Shown: positions 38,311 through 62,247, counted from the stretch's first letter. The stretch: DNA of 64,000 bases from Candidatus Omnitrophota bacterium (GCA_028280285.1 JANQMA010000014.1:907-64906); one strand, 5' to 3'. The notes: generated by a model not told the origin, from the letters alone. Program-made: numbers and translations.

Positions 38311-40011
38311 ATGACTAAACAAAAAAGAAAATATTCCTCCAAAGTTGTTGACGGTTATGATCGCGCACCGAGCCGTTCGATGCTGCGTGCAGTCGGATTT
38401 AAAGACGCGGATTTCAAAAAACCGCAAATCGGTATTGCCTCAACATGGAGCATGGTAACACCCTGTAACATGCACATCGATGGCCTGGCTAAAAAATCAT
38501 GTAAGGGTGTTGATGCGGCTGGCGGTAAAGGTGTTATCTTTAATACCATCACAATCTCCGATGGTATTTCCATGGGTAGTGAAGGGATGAAGTATTCGCT
38601 TGTTTCACGCGAGGTCATCGCTGATTCTTTAGAAACAGTTGTTGGTTGTCAGGGATTTGACGGTGTTGTGGCGATCGGCGGCTGTGATAAAAATATGCCT
38701 GGGTGTCTCATTGGCATGGCGCGCTTAAACCGTCCGTCTGTTTTTGTTTATGGTGGGACAATTTTACCGGGGTGTATGACAGGTAAGGAAGTCGGTAAAA
38801 AACTGGACATTGTCTCTGTCTTTGAAGCTGTCGGAGCCTACTCAAATAAAAAGATCTCAAATAAAGAATTAAAAAAAGTTGAAACACTTTCTATTCCCGG
38901 TCCTGGTTCATGTGGTGGGATGTATACGGCTAACACCATGGCATCAGCCATTGAAGCGTTAGGTATGAGTTTGCCGGGATCATCCGCCCAAAATGCGATT
39001 TCGAAAGAAAAATCAAAAGACTGTGTTGAGGCTGGTAAGGCCGTTCTTAATTTACTTCAAAAAAATATTCGTCCGCGCGATATTATGACACGTAAGGCCT
39101 TTGAAAATGCGATTACAGTTGTCACAGCGCTTGCCGGTTCAACCAACGCGGTTTTGCATTTGCTTGCCATGGCGAACGCTTGCGGCGTTAATCTTTCGAT
39201 TGATGATTTTACGCGTATCGGTAAAAAGGTTCCTGTTTTAGGCGATTTGAAACCAAGCGGTAAGTATTTAATGTCGGAATTAATTGCCATCGGCGGTATT
39301 CAACCGCTTATGAAGATGCTTCTTAAAAAAGGATTACTTCATGGCGATTGCATGACGGTCACCGGCAAAACAATGGCCCAAAATCTAAAGAACGTTAAGC
39401 CGTATCCGGTTAAACAGGATATTATCCGCCCATTCGATGATCCGATCAAAAAGACCGGACACTTGGTTATTCTCTACGGTAACTTAGCTAAGACCGGGGC
39501 GGTGGCCAAAATCAGTGGCAAGGAAGGGTTGTTTTTTTCTGGCAAGGCGATCGTTTTTGAATCGGAGGAAACAGCACTTCAGGCGATCCTTTCCGGCAAA
39601 GTTAAGAAGGGGCATGTTGTTGTTGTGCGCTACGAAGGGCCGAAGGGCGGACCTGGTATGCGTGAGATGTTATCTCCCACATCAGCCATTATGCGTAAAG
39701 GTTTGGGTAAAGATGTTGCGCTTATTACTGACGGACGTTTTTCCGGTGGAAGCCACGGTTTTGTTGTCGGGCATGTGTCTCCTGAAGCTTATGATGGCGG
39801 AACGATCGCCATTATCAAAAATGGGGACCCGATTACCATTGATGCCAAGAAACAAAAAATCAATTTAGATATTCCGGCAACGGAAATTAAAAAACGCTTA
39901 AAAGCTTGGAAACGACCGAAATCAAAATATACTAAAGGAGTCCTTGCGAAATATCGTCATACAGTATCGTCTGCTCATCTTGGAGCAGTAACAGATTTGG
40001 ATTTAACATAA
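38311..40011 (+). CDS. ilvD: Dihydroxy-acid dehydratase
   Basis: IlvD/EDD family; CDKNMPG and GGSCGGMYTANTM motifs. Confidence 0.95.
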   Translation: MTKQKRKYSSKVVDGYDRAPSRSMLRAVGFKDADFKKPQIGIASTWSMVTPCNMHIDGLAKKSCKGVDAAGGKGVIFNTITISDGISMGSEGMKYSLVSREVIADSLETVVGCQGFDGVVAIGGCDKNMPGCLIGMARLNRPSVFVYGGTILPGCMTGKEVGKKLDIVSVFEAVGAYSNKKISNKELKKVETLSIPGPGSCGGMYTANTMASAIEALGMSLPGSSAQNAISKEKSKDCVEAGKAVLNLLQKNIRPRDIMTRKAFENAITVVTALAGSTNAVLHLLAMANACGVNLSIDDFTRIGKKVPVLGDLKPSGKYLMSELIAIGGIQPLMKMLLKKGLLHGDCMTVTGKTMAQNLKNVKPYPVKQDIIRPFDDPIKKTGHLVILYGNLAKTGAVAKISGKEGLFFSGKAIVFESEETALQAILSGKVKKGHVVVVRYEGPKGGPGMREMLSPTSAIMRKGLGKDVALITDGRFSGGSHGFVVGHVSPEAYDGGTIAIIKNGDPITIDAKKQKINLDIPATEIKKRLKAWKRPKSKYTKGVLAKYRHTVSSAHLGAVTDLDLT

Positions 40012-51836: not shown

Positions 51837-53042
51837 ATGAAGAAAGTTGTTTTATTAATGATCATCATGAGTTTTGCGATGTGCTCACTCGCTCATGCAG
51901 ACATCAATGAAGAAGTTCTTCGTGAGCTGCGCGCTTTAAAAGCACGCGTGATTGAGCTTGAAGCAAAAGTTCAGCAATATGAGCGCCAAGATATGGCCCG
52001 TACGCATGATGACCATGCCGGGCATGATGATCATCACGGACATGATCACGCAGCAGATGAAAAATGGGGCCCGTTTGGCGAGCATGATCATGGTGGGTTA
52101 GATTTTGACCGCATATCGATTCATGGAGGAGTTGACCTTCGCCTGACCGATGCTGAGGAAGCAGAAAAAGATGCTGTTCTGCAAGAGGCGGAAATCGCAC
52201 TTGAGGCAGAATTAACGGATTGGTTAACCGGTTTTGTGAGCATCACCAAAGAAAATGGTGAATCGGCCGCTGTTGAAGAAGCTTTTGGTGAGATGACTAT
52301 CGATGAATGGAACCTGAAGCTTAAAGGGGGGAAGTATTTTGTTCCTTTTGGTGCTCTTAATCAATTTGAATACTTTGATCGCCCTACCATTACCCGTTCC
52401 CCGATGGAAGAAGATTTCTTTGGTGAAGAACCTTGGATTGATACAGGGGCCACAGCGCAATTATTATTGCCTGAATTCGTTGATGGGTGGAAATCAGCTT
52501 TAACCGTTGGTTTATTTAATGGGGATAACGAAGCAAGCTTCGGTGACGATGACGAGGCGACATCAGAAAGCAATAACAATTTCCCTCTTTTGGTCCGCTA
52601 CCAAAAACATTATGAGGACGATTGGGGTTCTTTGAGTGGTGGATTTTCCTTTGCGCATGGGAATTCCGATGCCGCTGAAGATTTTGAGACAACAGTTAAA
52701 GGGGCCGATTTAGCACTTAATATCGGCAATTTTGACTTTCTTTTCGAGTATATTCATCGTGATAAAGAAGAAGCTGGCAATGGGTTAGTTGGTTATGGGT
52801 ATGATCTCAGTGCCTCATACACCGTGCCGCTCGAATATAAGTATCTGGAGTATGTAGAATTTCTTTTTGCCTACGGCATGAGTGATGCGAGCGAATCGAC
52901 CGAGAAAGAGCGCTTCGTACCGCAGCTGACGCTTGGCTTTACAGAGAATACAAAGCTACGCTTTCTCTATGAATTCCTAGAAGAGAAGCCAACGGATACA
53001 GACAATAATCGCTTCATATCCCAATTTGCATTCCAATTTTAA
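51837..53042 (+). CDS. His-rich outer-membrane beta-barrel protein (putative metal-regulated porin/receptor)
   Basis: Signal peptide, coiled-coil segment, His-rich stretch HDDHAGHDDHHGHDHAADEKWGPFGEHDHGG, alternating beta-strand pattern, and a C-terminal aromatic residue (…FAFQF). Confidence 0.6.
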   Translation: MKKVVLLMIIMSFAMCSLAHADINEEVLRELRALKARVIELEAKVQQYERQDMARTHDDHAGHDDHHGHDHAADEKWGPFGEHDHGGLDFDRISIHGGVDLRLTDAEEAEKDAVLQEAEIALEAELTDWLTGFVSITKENGESAAVEEAFGEMTIDEWNLKLKGGKYFVPFGALNQFEYFDRPTITRSPMEEDFFGEEPWIDTGATAQLLLPEFVDGWKSALTVGLFNGDNEASFGDDDEATSESNNNFPLLVRYQKHYEDDWGSLSGGFSFAHGNSDAAEDFETTVKGADLALNIGNFDFLFEYIHRDKEEAGNGLVGYGYDLSASYTVPLEYKYLEYVEFLFAYGMSDASESTEKERFVPQLTLGFTENTKLRFLYEFLEEKPTDTDNNRFISQFAFQF

Positions 53043-53056
53043 TTAATTATAAAAAG

Positions 53057-53140
53057 CCTATTCAACTGCGTCAGTTGAATAGGCTCCAATTAGACCTAAC
53101 CTCAAGGGTGTTCTAACGACACCCTTGACTTTTTTATTTT
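53057..53140 (+). terminator. Two tandem hairpins after the OMP gene; the second is an intrinsic terminator
   Basis: gcctattcaactg-cgt-cagttgaataggc at 53057-53085, then caagggtgt-tctaacg-acacccttg followed by acttttttatttt at 53103-53140. Confidence 0.7.
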
Positions 53141-53142
53141 AG

Positions 53143-53159
53143 ATGATACACTGTCTCAT
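53143..53159 (+). promoter_or_regulatory. Candidate Fur-family operator half-palindrome upstream of the second Fur-family gene
   Basis: atgatacactgtctcat; its reverse complement atgagacagtgtatcat matches 13 of 16 positions of the box at 53631-53652. Confidence 0.35.
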
Positions 53160-53171
53160 ATAAAGGATAAT

Positions 53172-53615
53172 ATGGATCAACGGATTAATAATGAAAAGGA
53201 AAAGTTTGTCAGCTTTCTTGAGAAAAACAGGGTTAGGTTCACACCGGCCCGTAAGATCGTTTTTGAAGAAGTGATGAAGGCGCACGGGCATTTTGCGGCT
53301 GAGGAGCTGGTCAAACAGTGTAAAAAGCATAAGCGTAATGTTTCCCGCGCAAGTGTTTACCGGTGCCTCCGTGAGATGTTGGAGGCAGGCATCATCCGCC
53401 AGACAGCCTATGGGGAGAAACATGCCCATTTTGAGCATATTTATGATGAAAAACCACATCACCACGCGCGCTGCATTCGGTGTGGTGATCTATTGGAAAT
53501 ACCTGATTTAGATGAAGAAAAACTTTACGCATCAATCCTTAAAAAGAAGAATTTTAAGGTAATCGGCCATGAAATGGTTTTTTATGGATTGTGCGATAGA
53601 TGTCAAGATGACTAA
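53172..53615 (+). CDS. Fur-family metalloregulator (second paralog; Fur/Mur/Zur-like)
   Basis: Fur fold with HHHxRCxRCG and a C-terminal CDRC motif. Confidence 0.8.
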   Translation: MDQRINNEKEKFVSFLEKNRVRFTPARKIVFEEVMKAHGHFAAEELVKQCKKHKRNVSRASVYRCLREMLEAGIIRQTAYGEKHAHFEHIYDEKPHHHARCIRCGDLLEIPDLDEEKLYASILKKKNFKVIGHEMVFYGLCDRCQDD

Positions 53616-53630
53616 AATTTTTTAACTATA

Positions 53631-53652
53631 AAATGAGATAGTATCTCACTTT
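53631..53652 (+). promoter_or_regulatory. 21-bp near-perfect palindrome (Fur-box-like operator) upstream of the TroA-like ABC operon
   Basis: aaatgagatagtatctcacttt with the 7-1-7 core tgagata g tatctca; about 20 nt before the GTG start at 53670. Confidence 0.5.
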
Positions 53653-53669
53653 AAGGAAGCGAGGAACCT

Positions 53670-54575
53670 GTGAAAAAATTATTTCTTTTCACAATTATGT
53701 TAAGTTTCGTATTAACCGCTCAGCCAGCTGTGGCGCAAAAAAAGCTTAATGTGGTCACCACGATCGGCCAAATCACCGATATCGTCACAATCATTGGTGG
53801 TGAAAATATAGAGGTAACGGGCCTAATGGGGGCAGGTGTTGATCCGCACCTTTACCGCGCTTCGGAGGGAGATGTTCATATTCTCTCAAAAGCTGATGTT
53901 ATTTTTTATAATGGGCTTAACTTGGAAGCCAAACTCGGCAAAATCTTAGCCAAAATGAAACGTGATAAAACAATTGTTGCCTTAGGAGAAAGCGTGCCGA
54001 AAAATTTACTACTTGATAGCGAGGATTACGTAGGGCACTCTGATCCTCATGTTTGGTTTAATGTCGAGCACTGGAGCCTTGTTGCCCAAAAAATAAGTAA
54101 TGTCCTGATCGAAAAAGATCCGGATCATACCGCTGATTATCAAAAAAACACCGATAAACTCATTGCCAGACTTAAAACGCTCCAAACATATGTTCTTAAT
54201 AGATCACAAGAGTTAAATAAAACACAACGTGTTTTGGTCACCGCCCATGATGCCTTTCGTTATTTCGGAAAAAAGTATGACTTTGAAGTTGTAGGCTTAC
54301 AAGGTATAAGCACTGAATCGGAAGCAGGCACAAAGGACGTCGCTGAACTGGCCGATTTTATCGCAGAGCGAAAGATCAAGGCCATCTTTATCGAATCGTC
54401 TGTTCCTGAACGTAATATCAAAGCGGTGCAGGAAGCTGTAAACGCGCGCGGCTGGAATGTTGAAATCGGTGGAGAACTTTTCTCAGACGCTATGGGTGAT
54501 GAAGGTACCGTGGAAGGAACATATATCGGCATGATTACGCATAATATCGATACGATTGTCGGTGCGTTAAAATAG
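53670..54575 (+). CDS. Metal (Mn/Fe/Zn) ABC transporter substrate-binding protein, TroA/MntC-like, GTG start
   Basis: Signal peptide and cluster-9 SBP fold without a His-rich loop (metal-ligand His in HLYR and HVWF). Confidence 0.8.
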   Translation: MKKLFLFTIMLSFVLTAQPAVAQKKLNVVTTIGQITDIVTIIGGENIEVTGLMGAGVDPHLYRASEGDVHILSKADVIFYNGLNLEAKLGKILAKMKRDKTIVALGESVPKNLLLDSEDYVGHSDPHVWFNVEHWSLVAQKISNVLIEKDPDHTADYQKNTDKLIARLKTLQTYVLNRSQELNKTQRVLVTAHDAFRYFGKKYDFEVVGLQGISTESEAGTKDVAELADFIAERKIKAIFIESSVPERNIKAVQEAVNARGWNVEIGGELFSDAMGDEGTVEGTYIGMITHNIDTIVGALK

Positions 54576-54648
54576 GTGAAAGGTAAAAGATGAATGGTAA
54601 AAGATTGAAATTATTTTTAACCTTTAACCTTCAACCCTTAACCTTACA
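54575..54648. repeat. Heptamer-built inverted repeat (GGTAAAA / TTTAACC units)
   Basis: aggtaaa agatgaa tggtaaa agattga ... tttaacc tttaacc ttcaacc cttaacc ttac. Confidence 0.55.
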
Positions 54649-54666
54649 AGTAAGGATAAACAAACA

Positions 54667-55428
54667 ATGACCAAACAAACTGAACTTTCTGCCATATCAA
54701 TCAATGACCTGACGGTTGCTTATAATGAGAAGCCTGTTTTGTGGGATATTGACTTTCATGCGCCACAAGGGGTGCTGCTCGCCATCGTCGGTCCAAACGG
54801 AGCTGGTAAATCAACACTGATAAAATCTATCCTTGGGTTGGTGAAACCTGCCGCCGGACAGATTCTTGTCTTTGACAATGACTACCGTCCGCAATCAAGG
54901 CTGATCGGTTATGTACCGCAAAAGAATTCTGTCGACTGGGATTTCCCAACCAGTGTACTTGATGTTGTCATGATGGGCTGTTACGGCGAACTCGGCTGGT
55001 TTAAACGCCCGAGCCACAAAGAACGTGAGCTCGCTATCAACTGTCTGGAAAAAGTCGGTATGAAGGAATTTATGAACCGGCAAATTAGTCAACTCTCCGG
55101 CGGCCAGCAGCAGCGTGTTTTTATTGCGCGTGCCTTTATGCAGGATGCGCCTATTTATTTAATGGATGAGCCGTTTGCCGGTGTTGATGCGGCCACCGAA
55201 AAAAGTATTATCGCTCTTTTAAGAGAGTTAAAGGACAAAGGCAAGACGGTTATCTGCGTTCATCATGATCTTCAAACACTCAAAGAATATTTTGACTGGG
55301 TAATGCTCCTTAATGTGCGGCGCCTCGCATTGGGACCTGTGAATGAAGTGTTAACAGCACAAAATCTGAAGAAAGCTTATGGAGGAAAGGCAGGGTTCCT
55401 CGCGGGGATGAATACGGAGGAGAAATAA
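54667..55428 (+). CDS. Metal ABC transporter ATP-binding protein
   Basis: Walker A GPNGAGKST, signature LSGGQQQR and Walker B YLMDEP. Confidence 0.9.
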   Translation: MTKQTELSAISINDLTVAYNEKPVLWDIDFHAPQGVLLAIVGPNGAGKSTLIKSILGLVKPAAGQILVFDNDYRPQSRLIGYVPQKNSVDWDFPTSVLDVVMMGCYGELGWFKRPSHKERELAINCLEKVGMKEFMNRQISQLSGGQQQRVFIARAFMQDAPIYLMDEPFAGVDAATEKSIIALLRELKDKGKTVICVHHDLQTLKEYFDWVMLLNVRRLALGPVNEVLTAQNLKKAYGGKAGFLAGMNTEEK

Positions 55429-55440
55429 AAGAACTAAAGC

Positions 55441-55508
55441 GTAATTAGTCGTTAGTCATTGGTCATTAGTGTTTAATAGTTCTAATGACTAAAGACCAAT
55501 GACCAAAG
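55441..55508. repeat. Heptamer-built inverted repeat (AGTCATT / AATGACY units)
   Basis: gtaatt agtcgtt agtcatt ggtcatt agtg ... ctaatga ctaaaga ccaatga ccaaag. Confidence 0.6.
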
Positions 55509-55514
55509 ATCAAA

Positions 55515-56654
55515 ATGATTGAATTTATCATCACATTATTTTCCGACCACACGCTACGCATTGTTGCCCTAGGCGCGATCACCATCGGTATAACCGCCGG
55601 AAGCCTTGGAGCCTTTGCCGTCCTGCGTCAACAAAGCTTACTTGGAGATGCCATTGCGCACGCAACACTCCCCGGGGTGTGCCTTGCATTTTTAATCACA
55701 CAAAGTAAAAGCAGTTTAATACTTCTTATCGGCGCAGCATTAGCCGGCTGGATCGGAACATTATTTTTGATGCTGATTACTCGAAATACACGGATTAAAA
55801 AGGATGCTGCGCTCGGCATTATTTTATCGGTCTTTTTTGGATTCGGTTTGGTATTACTTACCATTGTTCAAAAACTACCGACGGCAACGAAAGCAGGGCT
55901 AAATAAATTTTTATTCGGTAATGCCGCGACGCTCCTTCAAGAAGATCTGACAATTATTGCCACATTAAGTGCGGTTGTCCTCATGACACTTTTACTTTTA
56001 TGGAAAGAGGTGAAGGTATGCGTGTTTGATGAAGGATTTGCCAAAAGCATAGGGATTAAGATAACATTTGTCGATATTCTTTTAACTACACTGATTGTTA
56101 TCGCCATTGTGATTGGCCTGCAAACCGTTGGTGTTGTGCTTATGAGCGCCATGCTTGTTGCGCCGGCCGCTGCCGCCCGGCAATGGACGGACAATTTAAG
56201 TGTTATGGTTTTGTTATCGGCTGCTTTTGGTGCCTTATCCGGGTTATCAGGAGCTATAACAAGCAGCCTGGTGAGCAATCTTCCTACGGGGCCGACAATT
56301 GTAATTTTCTTAAGTACGTTGGTTGTAATTTCTTTATGTTTTGCGCCACGTAGAGGCATTATGTGGGATATCATCCGTTATAATAAAAGCCGTAAACAAA
56401 TCCAGACAACAACTATGCTTAAAAACCTTTTGCTGTTTTCAGAAATTAATACAAACGATCCGTTTCATCCGCATGATATTGCCGCTTTGGATGCGATCGG
56501 ACGCGGGGCCATCGATCAGACGATGCAGGAGTTAAAAAACAAAGGATGGGCCCAGCAGTTTAAAGATAAACGCTGGGCACTAACGCCTGTCGGACTAAAA
56601 GAGGCCAGAAGTTTGACAGAGGAGTATGAGAAGGGATTAATTACAGAAAATTAA
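55515..56654 (+). CDS. ABC-3 metal permease fused to a C-terminal DtxR/MntR-like winged-helix domain (YtgC-YtgR-like fusion)
   Basis: Eight-TM permease core (about 285 aa) followed by an ~90-aa extension (about 56367-56654). Its ...TMQELKNKGWAQQFKDKRWALTPVGLKEA segment matches the recognition-helix/wing pattern of DtxR (…[27 protein letters not shown]). Confidence 0.6.
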   Translation: MIEFIITLFSDHTLRIVALGAITIGITAGSLGAFAVLRQQSLLGDAIAHATLPGVCLAFLITQSKSSLILLIGAALAGWIGTLFLMLITRNTRIKKDAALGIILSVFFGFGLVLLTIVQKLPTATKAGLNKFLFGNAATLLQEDLTIIATLSAVVLMTLLLLWKEVKVCVFDEGFAKSIGIKITFVDILLTTLIVIAIVIGLQTVGVVLMSAMLVAPAAAARQWTDNLSVMVLLSAAFGALSGLSGAITSSLVSNLPTGPTIVIFLSTLVVISLCFAPRRGIMWDIIRYNKSRKQIQTTTMLKNLLLFSEINTNDPFHPHDIAALDAIGRGAIDQTMQELKNKGWAQQFKDKRWALTPVGLKEARSLTEEYEKGLITEN

Positions 56655-56659
56655 AAAGT

Positions 56660-56730
56660 GATGCTAGATCCTTGATACTGGATATTTAATCTAGCATCCA
56701 GGATCTGGGATCCAGTATCCAACGTCTAGA
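56660..56730. repeat. Heptamer-built inverted repeat (NNNNGAT / ATCNNNN units)
   Basis: gatgcta gatcctt gatactg gatattt aat ctagcat ccaggat ctgggat ccagtat ccaacgt ctagac. Confidence 0.6.
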
Positions 56731-56732
56731 CT

Positions 56733-57845
56733 ATGCTCACAACACAATTCGAAATAATGTTGCTCGCATCACTCACGGCCGTCACATGCGCCTTGCCGGG
56801 GGTATTCCTCATTTTACGTCGGGTCGCCCTGATGAGTGATGCCATCAGTCACGCAATACTGCTCGGTATTGTTCTGGCTTTCTTTATAACAAAAAATCTT
56901 TCATCCCCATTATTGATTGTTGGGGCAACGCTTGTCGGAATACTCACTGTAAGTCTTACCGAGCTTATCATCCGCACGCACAAGCTCAAAAAAGATGCGG
57001 CGATCGGTTTGGTATTTCCGCTGCTTTTTTCCATCGGTGTAGTATTAATTAATAAATACACAGGCGATGTGCATATCGATGCCGACTGTGTGTTATTTGG
57101 TGAACTGGCCTTTGCACCGTTTAACCGATTATATATAAACGATATTGATTTGGGTCCGCAGGGGATTTGGGTTATATCGGCCGCTTTAATGCTTAACATC
57201 ACGTTTATCTTTTTCTTTTATAAAGAACTGAAATTATCCACCTTTGATGCCGGTCTTGCCGCAGCCTTAGGGTTCTTTCCGGGATTAATCCATTACGCGC
57301 TTATGACACTTGTCAGTATCACAGCCGTTTCCGCCTTTGAAAGCGTAGGTTCAATCCTTGTTGTTGCGCTTATGATTGCGCCACCGGCCGGCGCTTATCT
57401 TTTAACGAACAGACTCTCGCATATGATCTTTATTAGTGCAGGCATAGGCATTATTTCGGCCATCGGCGGCTACGGCATGGCCTACGCCTTTAATGCCAAC
57501 ATTGCCGGCTCCATGGCAACCATCAGCGGCGTGATCTTTATTCTGATTTTGTTTTTCGCCCCGGAAAGAGGAATCCTGGCCAATATGGTTGTGCGCAAAT
57601 GGCATAAGTGGGACTTTGCCGCTTCAACACTGACCGTACATCTCCTTCAGGCCGAGATAGAGGATGCGGATTATACCGAGCATATTGTCAGCCACATGAT
57701 CCGCCACATGAAATGGACACCGGAATACACCTCAGAAGTTATTGCCCAGTGCATTCAGGAAGAATTTATTGAAAAGCACGGCAGCAAGCTTGTCCTCACA
57801 CCCTATGGACGCGAAAAAGCCAATCTTTCTTTGGTTAAAAATTGA
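56733..57845 (+). CDS. Second ABC-3 metal permease, also with a C-terminal DtxR-like winged-helix extension
   Basis: Permease core plus an ~90-aa tail (about 57570-57845) whose ...SEVIAQCIQEEFIEKHGSKLVLTPYGREKA segment again matches the DtxR helix-turn-helix and wing. Confidence 0.55.
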   Translation: MLTTQFEIMLLASLTAVTCALPGVFLILRRVALMSDAISHAILLGIVLAFFITKNLSSPLLIVGATLVGILTVSLTELIIRTHKLKKDAAIGLVFPLLFSIGVVLINKYTGDVHIDADCVLFGELAFAPFNRLYINDIDLGPQGIWVISAALMLNITFIFFFYKELKLSTFDAGLAAALGFFPGLIHYALMTLVSITAVSAFESVGSILVVALMIAPPAGAYLLTNRLSHMIFISAGIGIISAIGGYGMAYAFNANIAGSMATISGVIFILILFFAPERGILANMVVRKWHKWDFAASTLTVHLLQAEIEDADYTEHIVSHMIRHMKWTPEYTSEVIAQCIQEEFIEKHGSKLVLTPYGREKANLSLVKN

Positions 57846-58011: not shown

Positions 58012-61000
58012 ATGGTTTGGACATTTAAACGCACTACGCAACGATTAACACATCGTATTTTTTCAATTGTTATTGCCGTTGCATTTTTTTCAAGCTCTGT
58101 TTTACCTCAGGGCGCTCAAGCACAAGTGATTCCAACGCCAGCGCCAATGCCGGCGATTGGTAGCATGGTGCCTGTCAGTCCAGGGTACACACCGGCCATT
58201 ATTCGCGGATTAACCCTTTTTCCAGAGAATCCCCTACAATTTTCATTTTACATCGATTTAGGTGACAGTGGCTTAACGGCTGAAGAGCCAGCCCTTAAAG
58301 AAACATCTCAGCGTTTAATCAACTATTTCATGGCCGGATTAACAATCCCAAAAGAAGAATTCTGGGTGAACTTATCGCCGTATGAACAAAATCGTATTAT
58401 CCCTGATTCGCTGGGTCAAACAGCGATGGGACGCGATATGCTGGCCCAAGATTACCTACTCAAACAATTAACATCCTCACTCATGTACCCGGAAGATGAG
58501 CTGGGAAGCAAATTCTGGACACGCGTCAAAGAACGGGCCATGGAGCTGTATGGCACAGATGACATCCCGACCAATGTATTGAACAAAGTGTGGATTGCGC
58601 CAGAAAGTGCGGAAATTTACATTCACAACCAAGAAGTGTTTTTAACTAATAGTCGCTTAAAGGTAATGTTAGAAAAAGATTTATTTGCACAACGTCAAGC
58701 AGTGGGGGCGGATGTCACCCATATGGAGACATCTGGCACATTGGTGAGCTCTGATGAAGTGGCAGATGTTGTCCGTGAGGTAATATTACCAGAGATCGAA
58801 TATGAAGTAAATCATGGTCAAAATTTTGCGGTATTACGTCAGATTTTTAATTCGGTCATTTTGGCCTCATGGTACAAAGACAATTTAAAAGAGACCTTAT
58901 TAGGAAAGGTGTACGCTGATCAAAATAAGGTCACAGGCATCGATGACAATGACCAGGCAACGAATCAAGCGATTTATAAACAGTATGTTGAGGCATTTAA
59001 AGCAGGAGCCTATGACTATATTAAGGAAGAGTACAATCCAGCAACACAAGCTATGACAGCAAAAAAATATTTCTCTGGTGGGGTAGGAAATTTAGAAGAT
59101 TTAGCGATACTTATTAATGGAGAAGTGCATACACCGAATACAGATACCGAGACATTTTATCGTAGAGTCAGTGGATTTTCACCTCAAGTTGTCCGCGTTG
59201 GTGGAGAGAATGTTGAGGCGACAAAAGAAACGATTGAAGACTTACAAGCATATTTAGATGAACAAAGTACAAAAATTAAATCTGTGGAAAATAAGACTGC
59301 AGCGATGGATGCGCACGATGACGATGCGGCAGTTGTTATGGATGTATTAGCGGACAAAGATGCAGCGAGTTTGACGATACAACAATTAATAGATGTATTA
59401 CCACGAAAAGTGTTTAAGAAAAAGTTTAGAGATAGCTTGCTTCAAAAAATACCGTCACAAGAAGAAGTAGATACTATGTCTAAAGAAGATCTTCAGGCTA
59501 TCGAAAAGGATATCATTAATGCTATTGAACAGAGATTACGTGAGTATTTATGGGTGTCTACAAAAAGCATTCAAGATGATATGGGAATGTCTAATCAAAA
59601 ACGGGAAAGTTTTTGGTATGGAAGGGATGATTATATTTCCGTTAAGAATGAAGAGATCCAAGGCTTATTTTTACAGGTTTCTAGCAATTTGAGCAGGTTT
59701 GTAAGGGGGAAAGAGCTCGAGCTTCGTAGTCCTTTTGATAAATATGGGGATCGCCATCATTCCTTCAAACGCTTAGATTATGAAGTTATGAATAATGCAG
59801 CCCAGGCGATTGTAGAATGGGTGACGGAACAAAAATCTAATGTTGCTAGATTTTTAGAAAAACAAGAGGAAGAGGTGCGACAACAAGAGACCGCATTACG
59901 TGCAAGGTTGGGGGGGCAACACAGCCAAAAAGGTAAGACTATTCAAGATTTAATAAATACATTACCACGAAAAGTGCTTAATAAAAGTTTTAGAGATGGC
60001 TTACTTCAAAGAATACCATCAGCAGGAAAAGTAGATACTATGTCCGCAAAAGATCTTCTGGAAATTGAAAAAGGTATTATTGATGATATTGGGCAGAAGT
60101 TAAACGGTTATTTGTGGTCGTCTGCAGATAGCATGCAAAATGACATGGGAAGGTCAAATCAAAAACCGGAAAGTTTTTGGTATGGAAGAAGTGCAAGGGA
60201 TATTAGCGTTAAGTATAAAGATGGTGAATATATTTATTTGAGACTCTATGAGTATTTTCAAAAAGGCAAATTTCAGTTTCATGATGGGCACTATACTTAT
60301 TATTCCTTTAGTGGTTTAAGTTATGAAGTTATGAATAATGCGGCTCAGGCGATTGTAGAATGGGTAGTCCGACAAAATGACAATATTGCTAGGTCTTTAG
60401 AAAAACAAGAAGAAGTTGCGGGTCAACAAGAAGCGGCATTACGTGTAAGATTAGGTACGGAAAGCGATACAGCGGCGATTGAGGAGGTAAAGGAACTACA
60501 AAATAAGGAAGAAGCGAAAGATTCTGCCGTACTAGAAGATAAGGATATGGCGGCGCTTCTGTCGAACGAAAAATCACCGGATAATGATAGTGCAGCTTTT
60601 GGCAACCCTTTAATTCCTATGATACCCGAAATCGAAGATGTTGGAAGGCTTCCTGCTTATATCTTTTCGCGAAAACAAATTGAACTAATGACAGAACATT
60701 TACTAAGTACCATGGATGCAAATTCTGAAGCGACAGTAAAAATCAAAAAAACTATTGCCAGAATAATTGTAGCAGAAGCTCAAAAATACAGTGAGCGCCC
60801 TTTCTCTGGGTATTATGCGTCTTGGTACGCGTTTCGGATGGAAAAGGATAATGGAATTACACCAGCCGTTTATTTTGCAAAAGAGGTTATGGAGAATTTA
60901 ATTGCAAAAGGCTTTGAACATGATGATCTTATCAATTTTCATACAAGCTATTTACAAAAAAATATTTTTAAAACACACCGGAAAAAGATTATCGAAATTC

Positions 61001-62247
61001 AGAAAATAGAAAATTTTGAAGAAAAAAATATTTTACTGGAACAAGAATATAGGCGTTTTCAAAATATATTGATAGATATTTTTCTAAAAAATTTTAGTAG
61101 AAGGGTACAGGTACACTACGTTGACAGCCCAGAGTTTAGCAAAAAATTTAAGATTAATTTGTTCCCCAAAAAAAATGAAATACGTATTTTATATCCATAC
61201 AAACATACTGACCAAAAAGAGTACCTAATTTCAACAAATCCACCCGTTATCCATTTTCATGCTCATCTTGACTCATATAGAGTTTCATCTGAGATTGATA
61301 GATTACGGGCTAATATTTATTTTGCTCTTTTACCCGCTCTAATGGCTTTAGAAAAAAGTCAGGATAAGTCTAGAGCAAAATATACAAAAGAATACTATCA
61401 CACAAGTTTTTTTGAAAAAACTGTACTAGAAGATATACCAGAAAGCGCTGGGCTCAAAACAAACGATAAAGAAATACTCACATCTAAAATTGAACAAATA
61501 GAAGACTTGCTTGATGATTTTTTTCCGCTTCCAGATAGATTAAAAGAAATCCTAAGAATAATTAAACTTGAAGGCAACTTACAAAGCATGAAATCCAAGA
61601 TGGAAAAATTAAATTTAAAAGTGATCGATGCTTTAGTCGAACAATTGAACCAAAAAGGACTGATGGATACACTTGACATCCATTTGCCAAATAATCCTAG
61701 TTACTATTTACGCATTTCTCCATTAAAAAAAGGAGATAAAAATGTAATTACATTAAAAGGTTATGCTCCAGATTTTGGTGAATTTGCCGTAAACCAAATT
61801 ACAGTACAACAAATGTTGGAAATAATACCTATTATTAAAAAAGAACTGACAAGTTATAAAGATTTCAATGATAAACAACAAAAATTATTTAAATATTTTA
61901 CTTCTTGGAACGTTTTTCAGACTTTATTAGATAATGCCGCTCTTGAAAAAGATACAGAAGCCAAGAACGATTCAGCCGTTGGTGGTATCGATCTTAACCC
62001 TGATTTATTGGATCTGCAGATCAAGCGCGATGATAATGGCATTCCGTTGCCACTTAATCAGCAGCCGCTTGAACATATGAATATTGATGGGTTTGTCCCG
62101 GTCATCATTAATATTGTCCCAGTCCCGAATTTGCCATTGTTTTTAGGATTAATGGATAGCAATGATAATCCTATCCAAGACACGGAACCTTATCAATCGG
62201 CAGAAGTGTTCGGGCGTGAGGAATTCAGTTATTTACGTGAGCATTAA
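58012..62247 (+). CDS. Giant secreted protein (1411 aa), paralog of the 23996 ORF: signal peptide, conserved N-terminal domain, internal ~180-aa tandem repeat, conserved C-terminal module
   Basis: Signal peptide ...PQGAQA|QV; N-terminal domain homologous to that of the 23996 ORF (WVNLSPYEQNRIIP...GQTAMGRDMLAQDYLLKQ); C-terminus GGIDLNP ... IDGFVPVIINIVPVPNLPLFLGL plus a D/E-rich tail. Confidence 0.7.
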   Translation: MVWTFKRTTQRLTHRIFSIVIAVAFFSSSVLPQGAQAQVIPTPAPMPAIGSMVPVSPGYTPAIIRGLTLFPENPLQFSFYIDLGDSGLTAEEPALKETSQRLINYFMAGLTIPKEEFWVNLSPYEQNRIIPDSLGQTAMGRDMLAQDYLLKQLTSSLMYPEDELGSKFWTRVKERAMELYGTDDIPTNVLNKVWIAPESAEIYIHNQEVFLTNSRLKVMLEKDLFAQRQAVGADVTHMETSGTLVSSDEVADVVREVILPEIEYEVNHGQNFAVLRQIFNSVILASWYKDNLKETLLGKVYADQNKVTGIDDNDQATNQAIYKQYVEAFKAGAYDYIKEEYNPATQAMTAKKYFSGGVGNLEDLAILINGEVHTPNTDTETFYRRVSGFSPQVVRVGGENVEATKETIEDLQAYLDEQSTKIKSVENKTAAMDAHDDDAAVVMDVLADKDAASLTIQQLIDVLPRKVFKKKFRDSLLQKIPSQEEVDTMSKEDLQAIEKDIINAIEQRLREYLWVSTKSIQDDMGMSNQKRESFWYGRDDYISVKNEEIQGLFLQVSSNLSRFVRGKELELRSPFDKYGDRHHSFKRLDYEVMNNAAQAIVEWVTEQKSNVARFLEKQEEEVRQQETALRARLGGQHSQKGKTIQDLINTLPRKVLNKSFRDGLLQRIPSAGKVDTMSAKDLLEIEKGIIDDIGQKLNGYLWSSADSMQNDMGRSNQKPESFWYGRSARDISVKYKDGEYIYLRLYEYFQKGKFQFHDGHYTYYSFSGLSYEVMNNAAQAIVEWVVRQNDNIARSLEKQEEVAGQQEAALRVRLGTESDTAAIEEVKELQNKEEAKDSAVLEDKDMAALLSNEKSPDNDSAAFGNPLIPMIPEIEDVGRLPAYIFSRKQIELMTEHLLSTMDANSEATVKIKKTIARIIVAEAQKYSERPFSGYYASWYAFRMEKDNGITPAVYFAKEVMENLIAKGFEHDDLINFHTSYLQKNIFKTHRKKIIEIQKIENFEEKNILLEQEYRRFQNILIDIFLKNFSRRVQVHYVDSPEFSKKFKINLFPKKNEIRILYPYKHTDQKEYLISTNPPVIHFHAHLDSYRVSSEIDRLRANIYFALLPALMALEKSQDKSRAKYTKEYYHTSFFEKTVLEDIPESAGLKTNDKEILTSKIEQIEDLLDDFFPLPDRLKEILRIIKLEGNLQSMKSKMEKLNLKVIDALVEQLNQKGLMDTLDIHLPNNPSYYLRISPLKKGDKNVITLKGYAPDFGEFAVNQITVQQMLEIIPIIKKELTSYKDFNDKQQKLFKYFTSWNVFQTLLDNAALEKDTEAKNDSAVGGIDLNPDLLDLQIKRDDNGIPLPLNQQPLEHMNIDGFVPVIINIVPVPNLPLFLGLMDSNDNPIQDTEPYQSAEVFGREEFSYLREH
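59380..60456 (+). repeat. Two diverged (about 50% aa identity) tandem repeat units of roughly 530 bp inside the 1411-aa gene
   Basis: Unit 1 about 59380-59912 (QQLIDVLPRKVFKKKFRDSLLQKIP ... YEVMNNAAQAIVEWVTEQKSNVARFLEKQEEEVRQQETALRARLG); unit 2 about 59938-60456 (QDLINTLPRKVLNKSFRDGLLQRIP ... YEVMNNAAQAIVEWVVRQNDNIARSLEKQEEVAGQQEAALRVRLG). Confidence 0.75.

Follow-up and report, generated by a model that had tools for sequence, protein, structure and literature searches.

Paired, probably DtxR-derived winged-helix tails on both permeases of a metal ABC importer

Organization of the metal-uptake operon

Positions 53172-57845 of the window, by which we mean the whole 64,000-nucleotide stretch of DNA analysed, hold a five-gene metal-uptake operon of an Omnitrophota-like kind on the plus strand, in which a Fur-family regulator gene (fur) is followed by the genes for a periplasmic binding protein, an ABC ATPase and two permeases (Table 1). 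The order of binding protein, ATPase and permease pair is kept in all related loci, and in 10 genome or assembly loci and 6 metagenome loci the transporter genes are immediately preceded by fur. The best NCBIfam matches of the Fur-like protein are to PerR and Fur, every one of them below its cut-off. The two permease genes are paralogous, which points to a heterodimeric permease pair of the ABC-3 importer type.

The gene in front of fur encodes a signal-peptide protein with a histidine-rich stretch and a porin-like C-terminal part. Its match to Porin_4 is weak (E=0.0018, below the Pfam cut-off); analogous genes, for OMP-like proteins or OprB, are present in three related loci (L019, L020 and L022). 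The product is probably an outer-membrane metal channel, and we infer its association with the operon.

Table 1. Genes, domains, motifs and putative operator boxes of the metal-uptake locus
Feature	Position	Strand	Remarks
Signal-peptide protein	51837..53042	+	His-rich stretch HDDHAGHDDHHGHDH; C-terminal part porin-like, terminus ...AFQF
Operator box 1, TGATACAcTGTCTCA	53144..53158	.	7-1-7 inverted repeat; fur start codon 14 nt downstream
Fur-family metalloregulator, 147 aa	53172..53615	+	PF01475, E=1.2e-24
Operator box 2, TGAGATAgTATCTCA	53634..53648	.	Perfect 7-1-7 palindrome, 0 mismatches, between fur and the binding-protein gene
Periplasmic metal-binding protein, ZnuA/TroA family, 301 aa	53670..54575	+	PF01297, E=1.6e-77
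ABC ATPase, 253 aa	54667..55428	+	PF00005, E=3e-31
Permease 1 ORF, 379 aa	55515-56654	+	Coordinates confirmed
Permease 1 ABC-3 transmembrane core, residues 1-276	55515..56342	+	PF00950, E=1e-71, 242 bits
Tail 1, residues 277-379, 103 aa	56343..56654	+	Probably DtxR-derived winged helix without C-domain
D-P-F-H-P-H-D motif, tail 1	56457..56477	+	Loop/N-terminus of helix 2; candidate metal or interaction site, with the S-E ending helix 1
Permease 2 ORF, 370 aa	56733-57845	+	Coordinates confirmed
Permease 2 ABC-3 transmembrane core, residues 1-275	56733..57557	+	PF00950, E=1.6e-45, 156 bits
Tail 2, residues 276-370, 95 aa	57558..57845	+	Paralogous DtxR-type winged helix without C-domain
S-H-M-x-x-H-M-x-W motif, tail 2	57690..57716	+	Helix 2; candidate metal or interaction site, with E19 and E27

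Permease cores and C-terminal tails

Both permeases have an ABC-3 transmembrane core, the scores of which are to be read against the PF00950 gathering cut-off of 20.1 bits. The Pfam match runs to residue 276 of permease 1 and to residue 275 of permease 2, and solved homologues stop where the tails begin: PsaC (7KYP) aligns to residues 2-281 of permease 1 (E=1.6e-37) and terminates about 10 residues further on, while ZnuB (260 aa) matches the same permease with E=4.6e-20. The preliminary description had assigned each permease a C-terminal extension of about 90 residues. Both extensions were found, as were the peptides quoted from them, and they are slightly longer than first estimated because the connector helix is counted in here.

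In tail 1 an A-P-R-R-G junction is followed by a long connector helix running into helix 1, then by helices 2 and 3, a beta-hairpin wing and a short helix 4. In the models the connector forms one continuous helix of conserved length from the last transmembrane helix, and it is free of indels across the whole tail family. Neither tail has the metal-binding and dimerisation domain of DtxR, as had been supposed from the start: the proteins end 7-15 residues past their L-T-x-x-G, at the point where the R-R-H-R-L helix starts in DtxR and in the full-length fusion P0060 described below, and PF02742 was not found in either tail in a Pfam scan. With this domain gone, metal can no longer activate binding in the manner of DtxR, a loss that counts against a DNA-binding role of the tails.

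Fold and ancestry of the tails

A winged helix of DtxR/MntR type had been proposed for both tails, and AF2 topology, Foldseek and hhalign all bear this out. The AF2 model of tail 2 is compact (pLDDT 88, pTM 0.75), and its top Foldseek matches are DtxR, IdeR and MntR, with a probability of 1.00 and an rmsd of 1.8-2.3 Å over about 70 residues. Tail 1 was modelled less confidently, with a pLDDT of 63, in the same winged-helix topology, and Foldseek matched it to winged-helix regulators only. Aligned to a DtxR-type reference with hhalign, tail 1 gave a probability of 97% (E=6e-11) and tail 2 one of 93%; a probability of 93% was also obtained for the two tails against each other, which makes them paralogues. 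They share the signature L-x-L-T-x-x-G-R-x-x-A of the DtxR helix 3-wing-helix 4 region.

The tail domains are invisible to current domain databases, so that the proteins are annotated merely as 'metal ABC transporter permease'. When the tails were scanned against Pfam and NCBIfam, no family passed the threshold and PF01325 was at no time among the matches; all that appeared below threshold were winged-helix matches, to HVO_A0261_N in 10 of 14 tail-1 sequences and to HemN_C in 6 of 13 tail-2 sequences. A direct profile search of the PDB with the tail-1 alignment gave weak generic winged helices only (eS10, S19e, IclR, MarR), and one with the tail-2 alignment gave no useful match. The link to DtxR was reached solely by way of P0060, hhalign and the fold search.

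Word-index searches for homologues yielded few matches, most of them fragments at contig ends. An exhaustive HMMER search with the tail-1 profile yielded 62 matches among 1.84 billion cluster representatives, nearly all of them the C-termini of ABC-3 permeases. Among the 62 is P0060, a protein of 462 aa in which an ABC-3 core is followed by a tail-like winged helix and then by PF02742. Its C-terminus matches structures of DtxR, IdeR, ScaR and MntR, starting at DtxR residue 11; a homologue search seeded with this C-terminus returned three proteins only. Through P0060 the evolutionary tie to YtgC-YtgR-type fusions, which the preliminary description had suggested, is supported. It is highly probable (about 0.9, as a joint estimate for architecture and ancestry) that the tails derive from a DtxR-type repressor fused as in YtgC-YtgR, of which they represent the DNA-binding domain, and that the metal-binding and dimerisation domain was wholly lost.

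To our knowledge, work on permease-repressor fusions has been confined to Chlamydia, where the fusion is full-length and present in a single copy. YtgR is cleaved from YtgC and represses the ytg promoter, a process documented only in Chlamydia (PMC5599777); fusions as such are known from 11 phyla according to Thompson et al. (2012), as summarised in PMC5599777. The permeases of the window share with YtgC-YtgR (CT069 of Chlamydia trachomatis) and with P0060 and locus L016 an ABC-3 permease ending in a DtxR-type winged helix, a junction alike in kind and length (A-P-x-x-G and some 20 further residues) and the operon order binding protein, ATPase, permease, permease. In the YtgR type, however, a complete regulator including Fe_dep_repr_C sits on one permease and the other permease is plain (308 aa in L016), whereas here the C-domain is absent, both permeases have a tail, and there is a separate Fur gene. 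The conserved His/Glu/Asp motifs of the tails, absent from P0060, are also new. With DtxR, IdeR and MntR themselves they have in common the N-terminal winged-helix fold and the helix 3-wing-helix 4 signature, but they lack domain 2 and the SH3-like domain, and hence the canonical metal ligands; they are tethered to the membrane, several positions that would contact DNA are acidic or neutral, and they do not score with PF01325. The permease-repressor fusion would thus have had a second evolutionary outcome, in which the sensing and dimerising half was discarded and the DNA-binding half was duplicated onto both membrane subunits and acquired new motifs.

Distribution and selection

Both tails occur together in about 34 independent operons (L001-L013, L018-L023 and 15 metagenome contigs) of Omnitrophota, Margulisiibacteriota and others; rare operons have tail 1 only or tail 2 only, and in Babeliales-like operons with tail 1 neither Fur nor DtxR is adjacent. 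The in-frame junction and the tail length are identical in kind across the roughly 34 assemblies from several phyla, with a frameshift in just one of them (permease 1 of L011). Because synonymous sites are saturated, dN/dS was computable for some pairs only, and the pN of the tails was compared with that of the cores instead: it is 0.19-0.30 in the tails vs. 0.17-0.24 in the cores, with pS saturated, which indicates purifying selection. Together, the two tails represent an old and conserved subfamily subject to such selection. The preliminary description had called the double fusion unusual; the tail is indeed rare in databases, but it belongs to a conserved family extending over several phyla and is no one-off. 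Paired tails without a C-domain are a conserved yet undescribed design, and the tail family is compact and readily testable.

It is scarcely credible, then, that the tails are decaying remnants of a YtgR-like regulator, or joins of separate dtxR-like genes produced by assembly or frameshift. The tails are shorter than full DtxR fusions, and the frameshift in L011 would suit such a view, but it is opposed by a nonsynonymous divergence as low as that of the cores, by the indel-free connector and by the confident fold of tail 2. The artefact reading was rejected on the recurrence of in-frame fusions in independent assemblies; being recurrent and under purifying selection, the tails are neither artefact nor relic.

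Operator boxes and adjacent regulators

A Fur-family regulator and a Fur-box-like palindrome had been noted upstream of the permeases; both are present, and both are kept in relatives. The 15-mer of box 1 is found unchanged upstream of fur in L001, L004 and L012 and as close variants in L002, L003, L009 and L018, and equivalents of box 2 lie in the spacer between fur and the binding-protein gene of L003 and L009/L011. In all, 7-1-7 boxes are conserved in at least 8 relatives, with an identical 15-bp box amid diverged flanks. The half-sites are reproducibly asymmetric (T/G), TGATAYA vs. TGAGAYA, and this asymmetry is retained even in the inverted box. Further operator copies across the window are as numerous as expected by chance; a near-match at 39663 was dismissed as an operator, being intragenic.

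The 7-1-7 architecture of Fur-family operators is that of Baichoo and Helmann's model. Like the boxes of Fur, PerR and Zur, those of the window are 15-bp 7-1-7 inverted repeats with outer TGA...TCA that overlap the promoter of a fur-led metal-uptake operon. They differ at the inner positions, which read TGAkAyA here vs. the classical TGATAAT, a clade-specific variant, and are best regarded as putative Fur sites. The adjacent Fur-family protein would act on the two conserved boxes and in this way control transcription of the operon, of which it is likely to be the repressor.

The adjacent regulator varies, being Fur in most loci, a full standalone DtxR in L019 and missing from some, and the tails remain unchanged. 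L016 has a full DtxR in fused form and, adjacent, a second one that stands alone, so that an adjacent soluble regulator does not by itself exclude a regulatory role of the fused domain. No common palindrome was found upstream of the operons without adjacent Fur or DtxR (L013, L014, L022 and L024-L027), which leaves no candidate for a tail-specific operator.

Conserved residues of the tails

The most conserved exposed residues of the tails are His, Glu and Asp at the end of helix 1, in the loop and where helix 2 starts. The second His of the tail-1 motif D-P-F-H-P-H-D is conserved to at least 90% family-wide, and in tail 2 the same level (at least 90%) is attained by H36, M37 and W39; some divergent members have other residues in place of the first His of the tail-1 H-x-H and of H32 in tail 2. 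To judge from these patterns, two histidines and two carboxylates could serve as ligands in each tail, namely, in tail 1, the Glu that ends helix 1 together with H-x-H-D and, in tail 2, Glu/Glu/His/His. The H-x-H-D of tail 1, which opens the first HTH helix, presumably resembles in position the C-x-C-D metal site of ArsR.

The wing, with its basic residues (D-K-R-W-A-L-T), and the L-T-x-x-G-R-E-x-A signature are well preserved. The recognition helices of the two tails are 17% identical to each other. On helix 3 of tail 1 none of the exposed residues is conserved, even where genomes have an identical operator; its tail-2 counterpart is acidic in the window's clade and has K or R instead of E at its start in divergent lineages. 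By the hhalign mapping, the positions of Arg27, Arg29 and Arg47, which we take to contact phosphates in DtxR, are Pro, Asp and Glu in tail 1, and the position of Gln43, which presumably contacts a base, is Glu in tail 2 of the window's clade. The net charge is mostly positive in tail 1 and mostly negative in tail 2, which is net acidic in the window's clade. As an indicator of DNA binding net charge was dropped, the DtxR N-domain being, by our count, net acidic itself.

DNA binding or docking as the role of the tails

The ancestry of the tails suggests that they might still be a DNA-binding unit, in which two winged helices, paired by a permease heterodimer that would stand in for the lost dimerisation domain, bind an operator and, either tethered to the membrane or released as YtgR is, couple the state of the transporter or the metal level to transcription. 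Such a role would agree with the homology to the DNA-binding domain of a permease-fused DtxR, with the superposition of the tail-2 model on DNA-bound domains of DtxR and IdeR, and with the conserved wing and L-T-x-x-G-R signature. The presence of exactly two winged helices per transporter in the roughly 34 operons would fit the usual need for a dimer, a heterodimer could explain the T/G asymmetry of the operator half-sites, and the resemblance to ArsR supposed above, like the precedent of YtgR cleavage and repression (PMC5599777), speaks for the same view. However, a dedicated Fur (or DtxR) and an operator of classical Fur 7-1-7 architecture would already explain the regulation. Recognition helices as different as those of the two tails would lead one to expect a strongly asymmetric site, but a near-palindrome is seen. 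The variable surface of tail-1 helix 3 despite identical operators, the Pro, Asp and Glu at presumed contact positions, the single-tail operons and the want of a common alternative operator in Fur-less operons count against it as well. Altogether this role seems unlikely, although far from negligible.

The more specific mechanism of the preliminary description, a cleavage-activated heterodimeric transcription factor, does not hold up well: the operon comes with a regulator and a putative operator of its own, and helix 3 is without conserved exposed residues in tail 1 and acidic in tail 2 of the window's clade. Nor need the tails form a heterodimer, since operons with one tail only exist. A variant that dispenses with cleavage would make the transporter itself the transcription factor, the rigidly joined tails acting as a pseudo-dimeric DNA-binding unit, a 'trigger transporter' made of the parts of a dismantled DtxR. 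The conformation or metal occupancy of the importer would set the geometry of the tails and with it their affinity for DNA, and flux would be read at the slightly asymmetric operator without cleavage or a classical metal-binding domain. We consider this very doubtful. Should the tails have kept their DNA binding, the transporter would represent a new type of heterodimeric regulator, anchored in the membrane.

Winged helices often serve as protein-interaction modules, and the tails could be docking sites for the NBDs, for Fur or DtxR, or for a metal acceptor or chaperone, serving metal handover or complex assembly with no sensing involved. Conserved surface patches outside the classical recognition helix, the opposite net charges of the two tails and the weak, sub-threshold similarity of 6 of 13 tail-2 orthologues to HemN_C, which is winged-helix-like and does not bind DNA, are all compatible with docking. 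It is nevertheless improbable: the same tails occur next to different regulators or to none (Fur, DtxR, neither), and the conserved residues are typical metal ligands and not a hydrophobic interface.

The tails as a putative sensor or gate

The reading that we tentatively favour over a DNA-binding factor, while granting it somewhat less than an even chance, is that the tails are a cytoplasmic metal-sensing or gating module attached to the transporter. They would remain on the transporter as a built-in regulatory module and not be released as a repressor; when imported metal is plentiful, it would bind the conserved exposed His, Glu and Asp residues, and the metal-bound tails would restrain the transporter through the rigid connector. 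This would be a case of trans-inhibition, as by the zinc-sensing domain of ZnuC on ZnuBC.

Several observations point toward a sensor: the conservation of His, Glu and Asp alongside a variable helix 3 in tail 1, the acidic tail 2, the lack of the ZnuC motif from the ATPase, the existence of a built-in metal sensor in ZnuC, and the single-tail operons. Others point away from it, namely the retention of fold, basic wing and DtxR-like signature that would be expected of a DNA-binding domain, the replacement of candidate ligands, the K or R at the start of tail-2 helix 3, locus L016, the Babeliales-like operons without a regulator, and the missing PF01325 match.

In E. coli ZnuBC, the zinc-sensing domain of the ZnuC subunit, which has the motif CxxxHxCC, binds the transported metal and locks the transporter (bioRxiv 10.1101/2025.07.03.663024). 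When the ATPase of the window was compared with the published motif, CxxxHxCC was absent and the C-terminus had no Cys/His cluster. The ZnuC domain resembles the tails in being a cytoplasmic C-terminal add-on to an ABC importer subunit, present in two copies per transporter, and ZnuBC belongs to the same metal-importer cluster; it differs in being located on the ATPase and not on the permease, and in its unrelated fold and motif, so that the likeness is one of proposed working principle only. If the tails do sense metal and gate the pore, they would represent a new post-translational control of metal uptake, sited on the permease, and a clear case of a DNA-binding domain reused for another job. 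MetN, with its C2 domain, and ModC, with TOBE, also have C-terminal trans-inhibition domains in two cytoplasmic copies per ABC importer, borne on the ATPase and with folds unrelated to those of the tails.

The operon and the limits of the permease cores

The co-directional genes at 53172-57845 encode a metal importer of the ABC-3 group together with a Fur-family regulator, and the two permeases are paralogues of each other; the preliminary description had located both permease genes correctly and quoted their peptides accurately. The ABC-3 match ends at residue 276 of permease 1 and residue 275 of permease 2, and this is also where the closest solved permeases stop: ZnuB is 260 aa long, while PsaC (7KYP, E=2e-37) aligns with residues 2-281 and ends about 10 residues further on. 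The tails beyond this point comprise 103 residues (tail 1) and 95 residues (tail 2). Pfam and NCBIfam scans recognised neither of them, and PF01325, the DtxR N-domain, was never among the matches.

Genes of the metal-uptake operon and its inverted-repeat boxes
Feature	Position	Strand	Remarks
Box 1, TGATACAcTGTCTCA	53144-53158		7-1-7 inverted repeat, 14 nt 5' of fur start codon
Fur-family regulator (fur)	53172-53615	+	PF01475, E=1e-24
Box 2, TGAGATAgTATCTCA	53634-53648		7-1-7 inverted repeat, between fur and binding-protein gene
ZnuA/TroA-family binding protein (SBP)	53670-54575	+	PF01297, E=2e-77
ABC ATPase	54667-55428	+	
Permease 1	55515-56654	+	ABC-3, 379 aa
Permease 2	56733-57845	+	ABC-3, 370 aa

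Fold and descent of the tails

Both tails have the winged-helix fold of DtxR-type regulators, as had been proposed from the sequence; the evidence comes from structure prediction, Foldseek and hhalign. The two are homologous, the A-P-x-R-G junction included (hhalign 93%, E=3e-7). For tail 2, a 23-row alignment that included the paralogous family gave a confident AlphaFold2 model (pLDDT 88, pTM 0.75), in which a long helix 1 runs on from the membrane and is followed by H2, H3, a wing and H4; N-domains of DtxR, IdeR or MntR are the majority of its top 50 PDB matches, superposing at 1.8-2.3 A across 68-73 columns with a probability of 1.00. The tail-1 model, from a shallow alignment, is of modest confidence (pLDDT 63), with the topology H1, beta, H2, H3, beta-hairpin, H4. 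Its Foldseek matches are without exception winged-helix regulators, MarR and IclR proteins leading by E-value, and it superposes on MntR, IdeR and DtxR at 2.6-3.0 A.

When 1.84 billion cluster representatives were searched exhaustively by HMMER with the tail-1 profile, no more than 62 proteins passed E<=1e-3, and almost all were C-termini of ABC-3 permeases or fragments of such permeases. One of these, the 462-aa P0060, has in order an ABC-3 core, a tail-like segment and PF02742 (Fe_dep_repr_C); its C-terminal 170 residues match the structures of DtxR, IdeR, ScaR, SloR and MntR (E down to 9e-14), in alignments whose first DtxR residue, 11, belongs to winged-helix helix 1. Against a DtxR-type reference alignment of P0060, three further proteins (P0070, P0071 and P0072) and DtxR, IdeR and MntR sequences, hhalign gave 97% for tail 1 (E=6e-11, 56 columns) and 93% for tail 2 (E=3e-7, 35 columns). 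By structure and descent, then, the tails belong to the DtxR winged-helix lineage. Both stop short of the DtxR dimerisation domain, at the start of its R-R-H-R-L helix, and neither contains PF02742, which bears out the earlier remark that the metal-binding and dimerisation domain is missing.

PMC5599777 gives full-length permease-repressor fusions as reported from 11 phyla and states that in Chlamydia YtgR is released by cleavage and represses the ytg promoter. In the operon of P0060, which is classical and YtgABCD-like, a single permease is fused, the other (308 aa) is plain, and a standalone DtxR gene adjoins them. YtgC-YtgR fusions retain PF02742 and involve one permease, whereas in the window both permeases are fused and the tails lack the metal-site and dimerisation features that define DtxR regulators. 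ABC-3 importers, DtxR winged helices and YtgC-YtgR fusions are known; the truncated and doubled fusion seems to be new, since we found no description of either form in the searchable literature.

Tail-1-like domains also occur outside permeases. P0045 (122 aa) is a single transmembrane helix followed by such a domain, and P0063 (189 aa), which may be an insertion-generated chimera, carries one behind an IS-like Zn-ribbon and HTH N-terminus.

Distribution and maintenance

In a genome scan the tail-1 motif occurred in 14 MAGs, for the most part Candidatus Omnitrophota, the others being Margulisiibacteriota, Babeliales and some labelled Planctomycetales; all but one (13/14) have both tails in unchanged gene order. 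Five more divergent operons, reached via representative proteins, likewise carry tail 1 on permease 1 (profile E-values 1e-16 to 1e-30) and tail 2 on permease 2 (1e-22 to 1e-38). The tail-2 metagenome scan gave 23 loci, and 15 of the contigs reaching the end of permease 1 have both tails.

Some operons depart from this pattern, and they show the tails to be modular. In the Babeliales-like ones (L014, L025/L026, L027) only tail 1 is present, and permease 2, at 282-284 aa, is plain; in L046 (3280-5237) it is permease 1 that is plain, and the single tail, tail 2, sits on permease 2; and the permease-1-like core of L043 (1760-2905; 64% identity) bears a domain of the tail-2 type, which matches the tail-2 profile at E=6e-31 and gives no match to the tail-1 profile. 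The Babeliales-like operons always have a glutaredoxin/GST_N-like gene directly 5' of the binding-protein gene, and no Fur or DtxR gene adjoins them.

Compared with seven relatives, pN is 0.19-0.30 for the tails, close to the 0.17-0.24 of the membrane cores, synonymous sites being saturated; dN/dS, for the calculable cases only, is about 0.09-0.19. The connector from the membrane to helix 1 has zero indels across the family. From this recurrence, low pN and indel-free connector it follows that the fusions are real, old and selectively maintained. Neither a relic nor an artefact of assembly or frameshift joining separate genes, the latter raised in the preliminary description, fits in-frame double fusions that recur in the same order with tails about as constrained as the cores. 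In L011 (5112-6270), an Omnitrophota MAG, a frameshift that is probably an assembly error splits permease 1 just 5' of the tail, and because of it NCBI lists a 'partial' hypothetical protein, P0005.

Probable operators and the soluble regulator

The Fur-family gene and Fur-box-like palindrome noted earlier upstream are both kept in relatives. Boxes 1 and 2 share one half-site, and their 7-1-7 arrangement, ending in TGA...TCA, is the one classically seen in the Fur family. The box-1 15-mer is unchanged in L001, L004 and L012 (four genomes with the window), the flanks being fully diverged; close variants occur in L002, L003, L009 and L018, and L003 and L009 have inverted copies in the fur-SBP spacer. 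A Fur gene adjoins most operons whose contigs reach far enough upstream, and L019 has a full-length standalone DtxR instead. Read most simply, the operon is repressed by its soluble regulator rather than by the tails. The half-sites show a small but reproducible T/G difference (TGATAYA vs TGAGAYA), also in the inverted boxes, and promoter overlap, Fur binding mode or a heterodimeric binder are candidate reasons.

A GC-rich hairpin followed by a T-run (53108-53140, CCTCAAGGGTG...CACCCTTGACTTTTTTATTTT) lies immediately 5' of the fur operator, and L001 and L004 have a similar element at the equivalent place; it probably terminates transcription of the upstream gene and so insulates the fur promoter. 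In L019, itself a double-tail operon, a 9-4-9 palindrome (1484-1505, AAAGTTTACCATGATAAACTTT) that bears no relation to the 7-1-7 box precedes the standalone DtxR gene and is a candidate operator for DtxR.

Conserved residues and possible roles

Among 19 tail-1 and 18 tail-2 sequences, the best-kept positions besides core and turn residues lie where helix 1 ends, in the loop after it and where helix 2 starts: in tail 1, S-E and D-P-F-H-P-H-D (56457-56477; second His at least 90% conserved), and in tail 2, E19, E27 and S-H-M-x-x-H-M-x-W (57690-57716; H36, M37 and W39 at least 90%). Each tail thus has about two His and two carboxylates among its conserved positions; Mn(II)/Fe(II) sites typically have this composition, which suggests a candidate metal site. 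In the 19 sequences none of the exposed residues in helix 3 of tail 1 is conserved, even among genomes with an identical operator; helix 3 of tail 2 is acidic in the window clade (T-S-E-V-I-A-Q...Q-E-E), with K/R in divergent members. By the hhalign register, tail 1 has Pro/Asp/Glu in place of the phosphate-contacting arginines of DtxR.

The CxxxHxCC zinc-sensing motif by which ZnuC locks ZnuBC shut at replete zinc (bioRxiv 10.1101/2025.07.03.663024) is absent from the window ATPase. Taken together with the pattern of conserved residues, this leads us to favour, at a probability of roughly 0.45, a transporter-attached sensing or gating module, which would act through the rigid connector helix. 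A serious rival, though a less likely one, is a DNA-binding pseudo-dimer, tethered or released, much like the cleavage-activated, possibly heterodimeric factors first envisaged: fold, wing and DtxR signature are all kept, each transporter has exactly two domains, and in L016, the P0060 operon, a fused regulator coexists with an adjoining soluble one. A protein-docking role is less likely again. The tails are a compact, conserved domain pair invisible to domain databases.

Neighbouring genes

Directly 5' of fur, a 401-aa protein (51837-53042, +) with a signal peptide, a His-rich stretch (HDDHAGHDDHHGHDH) and a weakly porin-like C-terminal part ending in ...AFQF may be the outer-membrane metal channel of the system; related operons are accompanied by OprB or OMP-like genes ending in Phe (L019 3165-4226, L022 2231-3316, L020 3839-4996). 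On the 3' side, 58012-62247 (+) encodes a 1411-aa protein that has a signal-like segment at its N-terminus and, internally, two repeats of some 200 aa each (IQQLIDVLPRKVFKKKFRD... and IQDLINTLPRKVLNKSFRD...).
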